Positions 14,646-22,071 of a DNA stretch of 64,000 nucleotides are shown piece by piece. Origin of the DNA: a gamma proteobacterium SCGC AAA076-P13. GTDB lineage: Bacteria; Pseudomonadota; Gammaproteobacteria; Magnimaribacterales; D2472. The notes under the pieces are model-generated. The model had not been told where the DNA came from. It worked only from the letters and a program-made list of their open reading frames with translations, and did no database searches. Positions within the stretch are counted from its first letter, which is position 1. Every line of letters starts with the position of its first letter. Location of the stretch: positions 12,834-76,833 of the forward strand of contig ARRA01000004.1 of NCBI GenBank assembly GCA_000384935.1. The letters are read 5' to 3'. The translations under genes and the position numbers were made by a program.

Positions 14646-14673
14646 TTCCCTAAATCATATATTCTTATATAAT
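14646..14673 (+). promoter_or_regulatory. probable native sigma70 promoter of the tRNA-Ile2 locus
   Basis: TTCCCT-N16-TATAAT about 30 bp upstream of the tRNA 5' fragment. Confidence 0.45.
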
Positions 14674-14704: not shown

Positions 14705-14744
14705 GGGCCTGTAGCTCAGTTGGTTAGAGCAGTGGACTCATAAT
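14705..14744 (+). repeat. attL: 40-bp direct repeat, 5' half of tRNA-Ile2 through the anticodon loop (truncated tRNA)
   Basis: GGGCCTGTAGCTCAGTTGGTTAGAGCAGTGGACTCATAAT is identical to 21995-22034, then diverges (TCCTTG vs CCATTG). Confidence 0.97.
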
Positions 14745-14802
14745 TCCTTGCTACAACTCTAAACCCCCATTCCTACAATGTTTTTTAGTACCACTTTTTA
14801 GT

Positions 14803-14828
14803 ATGTGTCAGTTTTTTTGCGACACACT
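14803..14828. repeat. putative integrase arm-binding sites, left end
   Basis: ATGTGTCAG (14803-14811) and inverted GACACACT (14821-14828) match the right-end AGTGTGTCAG motif. Confidence 0.65.
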
Positions 14829-15629
14829 CTTATTGATAGGCAATGGAAATACACCTTTGTGAATGTTATCAACATTCCTTCTGCCTTTAGTTGTCATTCT
14901 AAAGCCAAGTGCCTTTGCGTACTGAACTTTATCAGCAATGCCTTCTCCTAACTTATTTGTACCAACACCTTCAATGTCATAAACAGTATCGCCTTTTCTC
15001 CACACAGTTCCTTTCTTTCTAATAATCTTCCAACCTCTTAACTCTGCTCCAATCTCTGTAAGTGTTAAACCCTTCTTCCATAAGTCATAAGCCTTTAATG
15101 ACTCAATCATTTCTGTTTCTCTGTTTCTTGCTGATAGTTTTATTTTAAGTCTTGCTCTACTGCCTTTATCGTATTCGTAGTTGTCTCTCATAATGATTTT
15201 TATTCTTTTCATTACATCTTCTTTTGATAGGTATGTTGGTATTGCTATGACTTTAATTCTTTCTTCTTCTATTTCGTCTTTTAGTGATATAGCATCCTCA
15301 TAATTTATAAAGTCAGCAAACTCTAAACTTGGTTCAGCAAATAAAAACTCTCCTCGTCTTTGTCTGTCGTTATCTACTTTCTCATTCCACCAAGTCTTAA
15401 AGTCTTTGTTTCTTATATCTCCAAAGTTTCTGTATAACTTTTGATTACCTTTGCCTTCATTTTTCATTACTTTGTCGTAGTAAGGATTTCGTTTCATATA
15501 CTCAAACCACAAGTAGTAGAAGTTGCTTTCCCACCAAGTTCCATTAGTAGAAGTCTCTACTCCTCTTTGAGTAAAAAGAGGGTGCTTACCCTTAAAACGC
15601 CTGGTTCGAATTGCCTTTAGTTTAGCCAT
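14808..15629 (-). CDS. putative FseA-like (DUF6499/DUF2285-type) transcriptional activator
   Basis: Likely start MAKLKAIR at 15629; LWFEYMKRNPYY resembles DUF6499 WEFLRRNPxY; SLKAYDLWKKGLTLTEIGAEL resembles the DUF2285 HTH. Confidence 0.5.
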   Translation of the reverse strand: MAKLKAIRTRRFKGKHPLFTQRGVETSTNGTWWESNFYYLWFEYMKRNPYYDKVMKNEGKGNQKLYRNFGDIRNKDFKTWWNEKVDNDRQRRGEFLFAEPSLEFADFINYEDAISLKDEIEEERIKVIAIPTYLSKEDVMKRIKIIMRDNYEYDKGSRARLKIKLSARNRETEMIESLKAYDLWKKGLTLTEIGAELRGWKIIRKKGTVWRKGDTVYDIEGVGTNKLGEGIADKVQYAKALGFRMTTKGRRNVDNIHKGVFPLPINKSVSQKN

Positions 15630-15748
15630 AGTTAGTGTGGTGTATATAGATAAGACTATGGTATCAGTATTGAAATATGAACACCACCAAATGTTGGTAT
15701 TCTGTATATATGTTCGCAATAAAGCAGACATAAAAAAAAGGAAATAAT

Positions 15749-16168
15749 ATGAGTAATAGTACCAAAAATCGTTTCGAAGCATTAAGCAACGAAGAGAAAA
15801 AAGAAGTAAGAAAGCAATGGGGCAAAACATACAATAGGCATTTCTATTGTGTATATGTGAAAGATTTTCACACACCTTATTACATAGAAATACCACAACA
15901 AACAGAGCAGTTGAATATGAAATTCAAACTGTTTTATATATGTGATTATTATGGGTTTGAATTAGAAGACATAAGACGAGCATTCAAAGTTTCTATGTCT
16001 CCTTGTTTTCATAATTGGCATCCGAACATACTTGTTGATTTAAGTTATCCAAATACAGAAAGCAACAACACTTATGTAAAAACTTTATCAGAACAAGGAC
16101 GCACAAAAACCTTTGTTTTTGATGAAAAGAAAGTTATTGAAAAAACTACAGAATTGGAGGTGGCGTAA
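15749..16168 (+). CDS. hypothetical element protein
   Basis: 139-aa ORF with AAGGA SD; first of four coupled + strand ORFs. Confidence 0.7.
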   Translation: MSNSTKNRFEALSNEEKKEVRKQWGKTYNRHFYCVYVKDFHTPYYIEIPQQTEQLNMKFKLFYICDYYGFELEDIRRAFKVSMSPCFHNWHPNILVDLSYPNTESNNTYVKTLSEQGRTKTFVFDEKKVIEKTTELEVA

Positions 16169-16710
16169 TGAGAAAGGCAGTAAGAGAATTGCTTAAACAA
16201 AGACAACAAAGTAGCGAAGACTTATTGAAGCAAGTTGATGTTAAGCAAGTTGGAGGTGGCAGAGCAAAAGATTGCTTTAATAATTCTGTAGATTTTGCTG
16301 TTCAAAACAGCGATAGAGAGAGATACAAAATTGTAAGTGGTTGGTTAGTTGGCGAGTTCGATAGAGAGTTTAACGGCACAGCAATCATTCATCATTATTG
16401 GAACTATGATACTAAGACAAAAGAATACATAGACATAACACCAAATATTGATGATAGGGATATGACATACAAATATGTCGTCGACACTGAACTAATGGCT
16501 TACTCACAACAGCCACATATCTACGAGATTATTGATGACTGTGTTGGACATAGTATGTGGTACAGCAATGGTAAGTTTAGTTTAGTCACTAAGCCTTTCT
16601 TAACTCAAATACCAGTTGGTAATTGTGGTTTAGGAACAGAGTTGTTTTTTATGGACTTTGGTGGAGTGGACAAAATAAACAGAGCATTAAAACAAATGGA
16701 GGTGGCGTAA
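16168..16710 (+). CDS. hypothetical protein with candidate Cys-His-Asp (transglutaminase/papain-like) triad
   Basis: GRAKDCFNN..VSGWLV..IIHHYWN..YIDITP; GGAGG SD and TAATG coupling. Confidence 0.6.
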   Translation: MRKAVRELLKQRQQSSEDLLKQVDVKQVGGGRAKDCFNNSVDFAVQNSDRERYKIVSGWLVGEFDREFNGTAIIHHYWNYDTKTKEYIDITPNIDDRDMTYKYVVDTELMAYSQQPHIYEIIDDCVGHSMWYSNGKFSLVTKPFLTQIPVGNCGLGTELFFMDFGGVDKINRALKQMEVA

Positions 16711-16994
16711 TGAATATAGATATGAATGCTTTAGAGCAACATCAAACAACCCTTCTGTTTCATTTTTATGACTTTGGAGATAGAGATGAATTTATAGATA
16801 TGTTGGGTGGAAGAAATACAGATACACACTATGGTATTGATGTTTTTTATTTAAGAACAGACTATGGATATAGCACAGATTGTTTTATCAAAATTGAAGC
16901 AAGAGGTAGAGAAAATGCTGAGATGTTATATGAGCAAATTAGTAATTGGGCTGATGACTGTGGCACAGACACAATGTATTCCTCAATCGTTTAA
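16710..16994 (+). CDS. hypothetical acidic protein (94 aa)
   Basis: Start MNIDMNALE at TAATG junction with GGAGG SD. Confidence 0.65.
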   Translation: MNIDMNALEQHQTTLLFHFYDFGDRDEFIDMLGGRNTDTHYGIDVFYLRTDYGYSTDCFIKIEARGRENAEMLYEQISNWADDCGTDTMYSSIV

Positions 16995-16996
16995 CA

Positions 16997-17182
16997 ATGA
17001 GAAAGAAGCCAACTAACCCTCAACTAAAACACTTAAAACACGAAGTGTATATTGAGCCAACAACAGTCGCACATCACAAGTTTGTATTGAGATGTGCTGA
17101 CTGTGAAGGTGCTTTTATTAAATGGCTTAGTAGGACAGACGCAGAGTTTTTAATGGGGGAAGGTGTTGTTTTTATTTCTTAA
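16997..17182 (+). CDS. small phage-type zinc-finger protein
   Basis: H..HHKFVLRCADC..FIKWLS motif; 61 aa. Confidence 0.6.
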   Translation: MRKKPTNPQLKHLKHEVYIEPTTVAHHKFVLRCADCEGAFIKWLSRTDAEFLMGEGVVFIS

Positions 17183-17423
17183 CAATCTTCCTAATCTCTT
17201 TTGGCTTAATGCCTAACCTCATAAGCCAAGTTAAAGTTGAAATATGCTCTTCGCTTTCTTCTTCAATCAAATCCGATGCTAAGCCTATACACTCATTACA
17301 TATAGCCAAGTTCTCATACCAACCAACATTAGCAACTATAAGTTTCTCAACATCATCTTCAGTTTTATTACAGAAACTACATACGCCCAATTTACGCATA
17401 GATTTTGGTACTTCTTTGCTCAT
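17172..17423 (-). CDS. stand-alone ClpX C4-type zinc-finger domain protein
   Basis: CSFCNKTEDDVEKLI..ICNECIGLASDLI matches ClpX N-domain CSFCGKxxxEVxKLI..ICDECVxLCxxII. Confidence 0.8.
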   Translation of the reverse strand: MSKEVPKSMRKLGVCSFCNKTEDDVEKLIVANVGWYENLAICNECIGLASDLIEEESEEHISTLTWLMRLGIKPKEIRKIVKK

Positions 17424-17704
17424 TAGATTTCTTCTAATACTTTATTTTCTAATTCAACTAAAACCATATCTGCTAACTTCTCGTTTGTTTCATATGAAGT
17501 AAAACCATTTTCTTTAAGTTGTTTTGCTGTCTGCTTTAATCCCACATATAACTTACATAAACTATCGTTGCTGATGTCTTGTCTTCTGTGTTTCATTACA
17601 TACAAATAACTCTTACTCTTTCCTAAGTATTGCTCTGTAAAGTCAACTTTAGTTAAACCTCTGTTATGTTCTTTCAGTGTGTTAAATACCTTGTCTAATA
17701 TCAT
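17423..17704 (-). CDS. small HTH-like protein (DUF6626-like)
   Basis: DFTEQYLGKSKSYLYVMK; strong TAAGGAG SD; coupled to the ClpX-finger ORF. Confidence 0.5.
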   Translation of the reverse strand: MILDKVFNTLKEHNRGLTKVDFTEQYLGKSKSYLYVMKHRRQDISNDSLCKLYVGLKQTAKQLKENGFTSYETNEKLADMVLVELENKVLEEI

Positions 17705-17823: not shown

Positions 17824-18306
17824 TTATTGTTTATTGCTGTGCTTACTAATAAAACTGCTTCGCAAATCTATTTTATATTTCTTTAATGTGTATCTGCTAA
17901 CAGCATCTCTGTTAGCAATCTGTGTTGCGTGAAATAAGAAACCCTTTTCTCTTTTAGTATTAAGTAGTTTCATATATTCCAATTTTAATAACTCAATCAT
18001 TTGTTCATTCGTAAAACCTTCTAATGTTTTAACTTGTATATGTGCGTGTGTTCTTTTTTCATCACCTTCAATTACTACAGCCCTTTTTATATGAAATTTA
18101 TCTTTGTACTTATATAACTCTCTTCTCCACTCGCCATTTATATTCTTCCCAAATACATCACATTCAATTTTGTAAAATAATCTACACATCAATTCACTCA
18201 TTTGTTCTTTAGTAAGTTCTACTTCTGTATTCAATGTAATAAACAAATCAAAACTTTGTTTGTCTAACCACTCTGTTGTTGCTTCTCTTAACTTGTATTC
18301 GTTCAT
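17824..18306 (-). CDS. minimal HUH-endonuclease rolling-circle Rep
   Basis: Ordered RCR motifs: I FITLN, conserved E, II THAHIQV (HUH), III RYTLK (YxxK). Confidence 0.72.
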   Translation of the reverse strand: MNEYKLREATTEWLDKQSFDLFITLNTEVELTKEQMSELMCRLFYKIECDVFGKNINGEWRRELYKYKDKFHIKRAVVIEGDEKRTHAHIQVKTLEGFTNEQMIELLKLEYMKLLNTKREKGFLFHATQIANRDAVSRYTLKKYKIDLRSSFISKHSNKQ

Positions 18307-19177: not shown

Positions 19178-19753
19178 ATGCGACAAGCAAAAGTGCTGAC
19201 AAAGGAACAAATAAAAAAGGTATTAAAGGTATGCCAACTAACAAGACACGAAGATAGAAATAGATTTATTGTTTATCTTTCTTTTTTAAGTGGAATGAGG
19301 GCAATTGAAATTGCTAACTTGCGAGTAAACAATGTTGTAAATGCTGAAAATGAAGTATTAGACACTATTGCTTTAGACAAAACGCAAACAAAGGGCAATA
19401 AAGGGCAGACTGTTTATGTTGGTAAAGCATTAAGAAAAGAGATTGCTGTTTATTTTAAGAAGTTTCCTCATTTATTAAATAATAAAGAAGGTAGTTTAAT
19501 CAAAACTCAAAAAGGCAAAACAACAAGTGCCACTATTCAGTATGTATTTAAGCAGTTATATGAGTTAGCAAACATACCTAACGCAACATCACATAGTGGG
19601 CGTAGAAGTTTTATAACTGAATTAAGTGAAAAGGGCGTTAGTGTTCGTGTGATACAAGAACTTGCTCGTCATAGTTCCTTACAAACTACGCAAAGGTACA
19701 TAGATGTGAGTGTGCCAAAACTTAAAGGGGCTGTAGATTTAATAAATGTTTAA
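19178..19753 (+). CDS. short tyrosine recombinase (catalytic domain only)
   Basis: SGMRAIEI (R), TKG (K), SHSGRRSF (HxxR), LARHSS (H), TQRY (Y); GGAG SD. Confidence 0.93.
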   Translation: MRQAKVLTKEQIKKVLKVCQLTRHEDRNRFIVYLSFLSGMRAIEIANLRVNNVVNAENEVLDTIALDKTQTKGNKGQTVYVGKALRKEIAVYFKKFPHLLNNKEGSLIKTQKGKTTSATIQYVFKQLYELANIPNATSHSGRRSFITELSEKGVSVRVIQELARHSSLQTTQRYIDVSVPKLKGAVDLINV

Positions 19754-20448: not shown

Positions 20449-21873
20449 TCAATCTTCATAGTTCTTTAGTAGTTGCTTCATTGCTTCTACTATTTTCTGC
20501 TCTTCTTTTTTATTAGTTTTTTTGAATTTCATATCACTTGCTAAGCCTACAAAAGCACTTGCTAATGAAGTTGCTTGTGCTTTGTTGTAAAACTTATCTA
20601 ATACGACAGCACTATTTCCTAATTGCTCTGCTACTAAAACTCCATTACTTGTTTCTTCTAATAACTCTGTTGCGTATGTATGTCTCAAACTATACAAACT
20701 TCGTTTGTTGCCTTCTTTGTTCTCATACAGTTTTATATCTTTAAGCAACTTCATAAATGCTTTGCTTGTTTGCTCACTTAACCTTTTGTTTCGTGCTTCT
20801 AACTTTGCTTTACTAAGTTTGCTCACACCAACTTCACTTGCTAATCGCACAACATACTCATCACAGTTAAACAGCTCTTTTAAGCAATCTCTTTTATTCT
20901 TTTCAGTTTTAAGTTTGTTTTTCTTATTGTGCTTGTTCCAAATGTCGCTGCTCTTTTCAGTTCTACTTGCTATGCGTAGTAGGGCGTTTTCAAATGCTCC
21001 ACTTGATGTTCGTATTATTACCTTCCTACTTGCTTTAGTTTTTGTTTCATTCTGTTTTAAGTAGCAAACCAAATACTCTTTTACATCAGCATCACTAAAA
21101 AACTGTTCTTCAACTTTACCTAACGCAGTCACTTGCTCATATTCAAAACTACTAAATCGTACTCGCATTATTTCTAAGCCAACTCTAATAGCACTATGAA
21201 GTAGTAAGAAGTAATAGTCGTATAGCAGTTCTGCTATTTCATTTGTAGTTTTGTTTTTGCTTTTGTTTGCTCGTTTGTTAGTTAGGGCAGTACGGACTTT
21301 TTGTTGCTGTGCTTTTGTAAAATGTAATCTCTTTGTTGCTTCAGTCACATTCGTTTTTACAAAATCAATTTCGTTGTTTATGTAGTTATTGTTTTTAGCA
21401 AACTTCATTAAGGCGTTCCAACTTGCTTGTTGTGTGTTTTGCCTTGTCCTACTTATTGCTTCTTTTCTTTGGGAAACAAACTCTTCTACATCTTGTTCCT
21501 TAATAGCAGTCATCACATAACTGCTAAAAAACTTCATAAACTTATTTTCAATTGTTGTTATGTATTCGCTTTCAATATCTTTAGCAATGCCTTTTTCAAT
21601 TCTGTCTTTAGTTTTAGCAATGTACTCTTTTGCTACAAAACCAAATGTCTTGTTTACAACAACAGCTCCCTTTGTTTCGTTTCTAAAAATATCTTCTGCT
21701 ATTTGTTTTGCTACAGCAGTTGCTTTGCGTAGTTCAGTTTCGCTTGTGCTTTGTCTGTAGTATTTGTTTTTCTGTGTAGCACTCTTCACAGAGACTTGAT
21801 AGAACTTGCTGTTCTTTCTCATACTTAAAGTTATGAAACTATCTACCTTCTTTTCTTTCATACCCTCACTCAA
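20449..21873 (-). CDS. tyrosine integrase of the tRNA-Ile2 element
   Basis: N-terminal arm-binding-like YYRQSTSETELRKA; SAIRVGLE (R), TK, LYSLRHTYAT, QLGNS, KFY; adjacent to attR. Confidence 0.9.
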   Translation of the reverse strand: MSEGMKEKKVDSFITLSMRKNSKFYQVSVKSATQKNKYYRQSTSETELRKATAVAKQIAEDIFRNETKGAVVVNKTFGFVAKEYIAKTKDRIEKGIAKDIESEYITTIENKFMKFFSSYVMTAIKEQDVEEFVSQRKEAISRTRQNTQQASWNALMKFAKNNNYINNEIDFVKTNVTEATKRLHFTKAQQQKVRTALTNKRANKSKNKTTNEIAELLYDYYFLLLHSAIRVGLEIMRVRFSSFEYEQVTALGKVEEQFFSDADVKEYLVCYLKQNETKTKASRKVIIRTSSGAFENALLRIASRTEKSSDIWNKHNKKNKLKTEKNKRDCLKELFNCDEYVVRLASEVGVSKLSKAKLEARNKRLSEQTSKAFMKLLKDIKLYENKEGNKRSLYSLRHTYATELLEETSNGVLVAEQLGNSAVVLDKFYNKAQATSLASAFVGLASDMKFKKTNKKEEQKIVEAMKQLLKNYED

Positions 21874-21920
21874 ATAGTGTAAAATTCACTTCTCTTTTTA
21901 ATAGCAATTATTATAAAGCA

Positions 21921-21956
21921 AGTGTGTCAGAGTGTGTAAGGATTTTTGACACATAT
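21921..21956. repeat. putative integrase arm-binding sites, right end
   Basis: Tandem AGTGTGTCAG / AGTGTGTAAG (21921-21940) plus inverted TGACACATAT (21947-21956). Confidence 0.7.
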
Positions 21957-21973
21957 ATTTTTAGAGATATGCT
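21946..21973 (+). promoter_or_regulatory. element-encoded sigma70 promoter for the restored tRNA-Ile2
   Basis: TTGACA (21946-21951)-N16-TATGCT (21968-21973), 21 bp upstream of the tRNA. Confidence 0.65.
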
Positions 21974-21994
21974 TGTAAAGGTTGATTTAACAAG

Positions 21995-22071
21995 GGGCCT
22001 GTAGCTCAGTTGGTTAGAGCAGTGGACTCATAATCCATTGGTCGTAGGTTCGAGTCCTACCGGGCCCACCA
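21995..22071 (+). tRNA. ileX: tRNA-Ile2 (anticodon CAT, lysidine-modified type); contains attR
   Basis: Full cloverleaf GGGCCTG..CTCATAA..GTAGGTTCGAGTCCTAC-CGGGCCCACCA; resembles ileX rather than Met tRNAs; located downstream of rpoD. Confidence 0.9.

Follow-up and report, generated by a model that had tools for sequence, protein, structure and literature searches.

An integrase element in the anticodon loop of tRNA-Ile2 that rebuilds the 5' half of the gene, and a predicted element-borne promoter for the hybrid tRNA

Introduction

Most mobile elements that target tRNA genes rebuild the 3' end of the gene and leave the host promoter untouched. A reversed orientation of tRNA integration was reportedly the subject of work by Zhao and Williams in 2002, going by its title.

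Among the 3919 islands of the Islander collection, 159 carry a 5' tDNA fragment; they are counted there, and how the rebuilt tRNA is transcribed is not addressed (Hudson, Lau and Williams, PMC4383910). In such islands, of which those at the anticodon-loop (A) subsite are closest to the present case, the displaced 5' fragment lies upstream in the same orientation with the integrase in between, which is also the arrangement of the element analysed here. For the marine pelagiphages HTVC021P, HTVC022P, HTVC109P and HTVC120P, experiments showed that the interrupted host tRNA is made whole after integration by a 5' tRNA segment of the phage (bioRxiv 10.1101/410191). According to the main text of that preprint, in which the word promoter is absent, these phages are complete podoviruses that insert into tRNA genes for Cys, Leu and Arg, in contrast to the present element, which has no virion genes. 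Among 1273 cases of integrase-tRNA arrangement, the shapes OD and SIT together account for less than 8%, as given in the accessible part of Panis et al. (PMC2951348). In the OD shape, the integrase is divergent from the tRNA and its promoter lies inside the att region, as in the locus described below; the promoters of the KplE1 integrase and of an OD-shape E. coli integrase are overlapped by arm sites and self-repressed, and autoregulation of a tRNA-associated integrase is also covered in the accessible text of PMC7286903. The same portion of PMC2951348 treats the integrase promoter and not a tRNA promoter in the same att arm, and that of PMC13626063 contains nothing on 5' fragments. Our search of the accessible literature found no paper on the integrase family of this element or on a promoter supplied by an element to a tRNA restored at its 5' end, an earlier description being possible. 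The 5'-rebuilding geometry is rare but already described, and we add to it a testable promoter model.

We analysed a stretch of 64,000 nucleotides (the window) from the gammaproteobacterium SCGC AAA076-P13 (G000), whose assembly comprises 1.31 Mb in 39 contigs and is 87% complete. The host may be a marine bacterium with a small genome, perhaps a member of SAR86.

Results

The first 40 nt of tRNA-Ile2 (CAU) are present twice on the plus strand of the window, at 14705-14744 and at 21995-22034, the copies being identical at 40/40 positions and offset by 7290 bp. The original prediction that the duplicated block is the 5' half of the tRNA holds: a 40-nt stub lies at 14705 and the complete gene at 21995-22071, and the identity stops one base past the anticodon loop CTCATAA, where it had been expected to end. 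In the relatives G003 and G018 the site is empty, and the DNA preceding the stub joins directly to an intact tRNA; the DNA flanking the stub is 98% identical over 102 nt to the DNA before the intact tRNA of G003. These empty sites show the stub to be the displaced 5' half of the host gene (attL) and the gene at 21995 to consist of an element front, reaching to about 22033, and a host tail (attR), in agreement with the proposed integration of the reverse, 5'-half type. Read from the DNA, the locus is a 7.29-kb tyrosine-integrase element inserted into the anticodon loop of tRNA-Ile2 with duplication of the 5' half, the working gene being an element/host hybrid. The features defining an Islander-type island are all found here, i.e. 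an uninterrupted target (G003, G018), a tRNA end fragment upstream of the intact gene in the same orientation, and an integrase with a PF00589 domain inside an island of 2-200 kb, given here by a 191-aa recombinase scoring above the cut-off and the length of 7.29 kb; unlike in the Islander definition, the main integrase stays below this cut-off (15.8 versus 27.1 bits). The layout also agrees with the OD shape, as integrase and tRNA are divergent and the att region extends over the predicted integrase promoter.

Decoding of AUA codons depends on tRNA-Ile2. The assembly encodes three tRNAs with a CAT anticodon, one of them tRNA-Ile2 and the other two displaying elongator-Met pairs (U4-A69, A5-U68) or features that we take to be those of an initiator. 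The gene at 21995 carries C4-G69, C5-G68 and G27-U43, which are Ile2 marks according to the accessible part of PMC2500205, where elongator determinants are also given, and we rejected an elongator-Met identity for it. It is the sole tRNA-Ile2 found within the 87%-complete assembly, as the original prediction presumed. TilS is encoded in the genome, and AUA makes up 35.5% of the Ile codons and is present in 1117 of 1119 crude ORFs. As further observations on tRNA copies, tRNA-Arg(CCT) has two copies of the same sequence (G000:C6 13-87, at a contig end, and C1 258476-258550), and G011 has two loci with tRNA-Ile2 and an oxidoreductase gene (C4 16183-16593 and C1 662670-663117).

The main integrase of about 470 aa is encoded on the minus strand (20449-21861; homologs begin at the ATG at 21861) and reads away from the tRNA. 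Residues R230, K278, R397, H398 and Y429 are invariant in 12 sequences and presumably constitute the catalytic R, K, R-H and Y known from this family. The structure model matches the folds of XerH, lambda Int and Tn1549 Int, resulting in a protein with the catalytic residues and the tyrosine-recombinase fold of a lambda-type integrase. Its predicted N-terminus comprises strands at 14-18, 25-30 and 38-42 and a helix at 48-66 and has no match to an arm-binding domain in Pfam. The second, small tyrosine recombinase of 191 aa (19178-19753, plus strand) matches PF00589 with 92.7 bits. A weakly HUH-endonuclease-like protein of 160 aa (17824-18306, minus strand) belongs to a family of 46 homologs with conserved HxH and YxxK motifs, in which H87, Y139 and K142 are invariant and H89 near-invariant across 34 homologs; the best fold matches of its model (pLDDT 79), with E-values between 2e-4 and 1e-2, comprise Rep and HUH transposase folds among others, suggesting that it may act as the replication or nicking protein of the element. 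The cargo ORFs (14808-17704), including a ClpX-type zinc finger ORF (17172-17423) and a DUF6626 ORF (17423-17704), are mostly without family, and their content varies among related elements. Virion or packaging genes, by which a prophage would be recognised, are not among the PHROG matches of the 13 element ORFs, and the integrase searches found no relatives of the main integrase in viral contigs.

Searches with an alignment of the main integrase yielded 17 loci, one from a genome and 16 from metagenomes. At 13 of the 17 the integrase has the 5' half of tRNA-Ile2 on its upstream side, the two reading in divergent directions; one further locus stops at the first bases of the tRNA, three are too short, and no other layout occurs among the 17. 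All 13 loci reaching the site thus have the 5' half of the same tRNA. Eight contain the whole tRNA (one lacking 3 nt at a contig end), two of these also possessing the stub, 7-8 kb upstream. As judged from these alignments, the targeting of tRNA-Ile2 is a family-wide trait. The element-borne halves of L059 and L060 differ from that of the window but remain paired with the divergent 3' half of their own host. In a profile search of 1.84 billion proteins, 72 matches to the integrase were obtained at E-values up to 1e-30; weak matches are present in G035, G099 and G222. We further observed that tRNA-Ile2 is also the target of conventional 3'-fragment islands (L042, L043, L044, L066), a single tRNA in L066 being preceded by a reverse element and followed by a 3' fragment, and that elsewhere in the genome of the window conventional tandem islands are marked by two 3' fragments of tRNA-Ile(GAT), each 45 nt long (G000:C3 155245-155289 and 160344-160388).

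It is hardly credible that the duplication stems from misassembly or arose locally without mobility, even if the assembly is incomplete and in 39 contigs and no single contig from the read runs spans the stretch. Two other complete elements (L053, L054) have the same ends, the empty sites show the uninterrupted target, and in five contigs the right end, the half tRNA and the left end are joined in a predicted attP or tandem joint, which does not distinguish circles from tandem copies; one of these contigs (L062) is 97-99.6% identical to the element of the window. Two seawater runs, each from a separate study, cover the body of the element in 30/30 bins, with no spanning contig. Neither an attP nor an attB joint is among the matches listed in four DNA runs (4/24).

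Crossover probably takes place in the anticodon loop (14737-14743). Past the loop, an element half-site (14744-14757, plus strand) and the tRNA half-site on the other side make up an imperfect dyad of 14 bp. The element half-site has 9/14 of the letters that perfect symmetry with the left half-site would require, a level reached by 0.26% of the 14-mers of the element. The imperfect dyad proposed for the predicted attP is thereby recovered, and the match amounts to 7-10/14 across 12 left ends, the background of 0.26% applying to those with at least 9. A degenerate 8-nt form of an arm-like repeat occurs twice at the left end (14802-14827: 14803-14810 on the minus and 14820-14827 on the plus strand), where it is kept in related left ends, and three times at the right end (21922-21954: 21922-21929 and 21932-21939 on the minus and 21947-21954 on the plus strand). 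It had been claimed that the TTGACA upstream of the tRNA overlaps a repeated arm-like motif; this stands for the degenerate 8-nt repeat and fails for the exact 10-mer TGACACATAT, which occurs only once in the element, its 9-mer being present inverted at 14802-14810. In L069 the right-end repeats shift together to a variant motif. Clusters of three repeats within 30 nt exist at two places in the genome, the right end and one more (C6, near 11300), which we dismissed as an att site as it lies upstream of a gene that we take to be mraZ-like from its sequence features and gene order. By eye, 21891-21906 looks in most relatives like the core half-site of the left end in reverse complement. This segment sits at the predicted transcription start of the integrase and could be an extra integrase site.

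The predicted native promoter of the tRNA (TTCCCT-16-TATAAT, 14646-14673, plus strand) belongs to a type found in 12 of 13 loci scanned and now precedes the truncated stub, as originally predicted. In several relatives (L023, L025, L026, L041, L045 and L047), no more than about 9 nt separate rpoD from the start of tRNA-Ile2, and the two genes probably share a transcript; for lineages with yrbL between rpoD and tRNA-Ile2 a separate promoter is predicted. We scored promoters by consensus counts and conservation, a genome-trained sigma-70 matrix having drifted to AT-rich noise and been discarded. A single consensus match is not above chance and is uninformative, since 39% of 2000 shuffled right ends yield a site of at least 9/12. 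We compared 22 right ends, which are not independent, L063-L067 being near identical, G002, G007b and G008 sharing one cassette, and L059 and L060 forming a pair.

The original prediction placed the tRNA under the promoter TTGACA-16-TATGCT, which is indeed present in the element DNA before the intact gene (21946-21973, plus strand; TTGACA at 21946-21951, TATGCT at 21968-21973). Under this explanation it would be the main tRNA promoter, and integrase bound to the arm would modulate both tRNA-Ile2 and its own gene. The site has the top consensus score in the right end of the window (10/12), it ends 21 nt before the tRNA, near the usual distance in this genome, in which many tRNA genes have a promoter-like site 8-18 nt upstream, and positions 2 (A) and 6 (T) of its -10 hexamer are kept in 18 of the 22 right ends. 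However, the hexamer reaches at least 4/6 in only seven of the 22; it is AATGCT or weaker in 11 and absent at a spacing of 16-18 in four, including G006, which has lost the native promoter, and among integrase-less right ends it reaches 4/6 in one of seven. The TTGACA is part of the third arm-like repeat, and as the three repeats co-vary in divergent elements, it is accounted for as a repeat unit; in one contig of low depth (2.9), a weak witness, 21888-21957 including the TTGACA is swapped for 36 other letters and the distal site described next is kept. We consider it unlikely that this proximal site is the main promoter of the tRNA.

A second candidate, TTCATA-17-TAAAAT (21857-21885, plus strand), has its -10 at 21880-21885 and its -35 over the start codon of the integrase. 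This -10 (TAAAAT, TATAAT or TAGAAT) is present in 20 of the 22 right ends, 103-127 nt before the tRNA, integrase-less derivatives having kept it, compared with the seven for the proximal hexamer. The part of the original prediction that assigns transcription of the tRNA to the proximal site is thus weakly supported. Across five divergent lineages the distal hexamer is identical at 27/30 positions, a figure inflated by picking the register by motif, versus 33/85 for the spacer. The -35 is constrained anyway in integrase-bearing copies because it contains the integrase start codon, and it is poor in L053 and G141; L059 and L060 are without the distal hexamer and show a different candidate 83 nt upstream. 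The promoter-like sites 8-18 nt before many tRNAs make a leader of 100 nt atypical for the genome. Taken together, the conservation of the hexamer suggests that a distal promoter at the integrase start (21857-21885) probably transcribes the hybrid tRNA-Ile2.

Alternatively, the element would have no dedicated promoter, and the tRNA would be transcribed by read-through from the rpoD operon, from the native promoter across short cassettes or from cargo genes, the conserved hexamer being a site for a recombination protein. The tRNA of several relatives begins 8-9 nt past the rpoD stop, leaving no room for a promoter, and in G006 the cargo genes are oriented toward the tRNA with no intervening terminator found. 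In the window, however, the 2 kb before the tRNA are occupied by two genes on the opposite strand, and the hexamer varies between TAAAAT, TATAAT and TAGAAT, i.e. inside the -10 consensus, while its neighbours drift, and we regard this alternative as improbable.

The distal promoter faces a predicted integrase promoter (TACACA-17-TATAAT, 21938-21910, minus strand), the -35 of which lies within the second arm-like repeat. The position of the arm-like repeats over this -35 appears to fit known integrase autorepression better than a co-control of the tRNA. The integrase -10 is TATAAT in eight of 11 aligned integrase-bearing copies, the three copies that diverge most having TATACT or a weaker hexamer. 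A key base is lost, each time by a different change, in G006, G013, the outer G007 copy and a cassette carrying a DUF4345 gene, so that the hexamer is broken in 4/4 integrase-less lineages with a close integrase-bearing reference and in 4/5 overall; in a test devised post hoc, the joint chance of these losses is about 0.01 for the hexamer and 0.001 for the three key positions. The fifth integrase-less lineage, G141, has kept the integrase -10 as TATTAT, and the proximal site passes there.

Scanning 266 genomes of the order, we found the right end in six (E-values up to 1e-22), the left end in eight and a full integrase of the family in G000 only. G002, G007 and G008 have a 1-kb integrase-less cassette that bears the att ends of the element and a gene for a DUF4345 membrane protein, G013 and G141 other short integrase-less cassettes, and the contigs of G101 and G111 stop inside the DUF4345 cassette after its start. 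The host stub of G013 has two substitutions, the element-borne half none. In G006 and the outer G007 copy the stub is gone and the right end is kept before a tRNA or half tRNA. Six of the eight left ends are accompanied by a right end and an intact tRNA, the other two being cut by contig ends, and no left end without a right end exists among the genomes with both sides assembled. These stub-less copies, and the lack of any left-only genome in that set, agree with the original prediction of a right end that is not easily lost. In G006 (L031 12151-15825), genes for a TonB-dependent receptor and a phytase lie between yrbL and the retained right end, which bears a short integrase remnant, the stub and the native promoter being gone.

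Over its first 220 nt the DUF4345 cassette shows 94.6-99.5% identity among five hosts from three genera (L032, G008:C3; L034, G007:C1; L035, G002:C1; L076, G111:C30; L077, G101:C70), compared with 78-85% for the rpoD ends, and the cassette has thus probably spread laterally, with an integrase supplied in trans. In run X1 the DUF4345-cassette-type right end has a summed depth of 30 versus 2-4 for much of the full element, which is a rough guide.

Discussion

We propose a model in which the main integrase would carry out strand exchange inside the 7-nt loop with the help of the dyad on either side and of the arm-like repeats. Transcription from the distal promoter on the plus strand would yield a tRNA precursor whose leader measures about 100 nt, and this promoter faces the predicted integrase promoter, whose -35 in an arm-like repeat is probably autorepressed as in KplE1. 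We infer that the right end is retained through decay because AUA decoding requires the rebuilt tRNA-Ile2, and this need would leave behind the integrase-less cassettes, which are probably moved in trans.

More tentatively, these elements can be read jointly. The promoters of tRNA-Ile2 and of the integrase, facing each other about 25 bp apart, might couple integrase repression to AUA decoding; upon loss of the integrase, selection might silence the opposing promoter. The right end might then become a permanent tRNA promoter, serving also as an att arm for integrase-less cassettes that helper elements move across genera. We regard this reading as possible and as doubtful in its entirety.

The full elements, attP forms and decayed cassettes form a natural mutation series pointing to one promoter, by which the transcription of a front-rebuilt tRNA becomes a testable question. 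Tools seeking only 3' fragments, or requiring an integrase or a minimum of 2 kb, would miss the cassettes of about 1 kb. The target is the sole AUA-reading tRNA found in a genome in which about one third of the Ile codons are AUA, resulting in a clear case of a mobile-element end that is hard for its host to shed.
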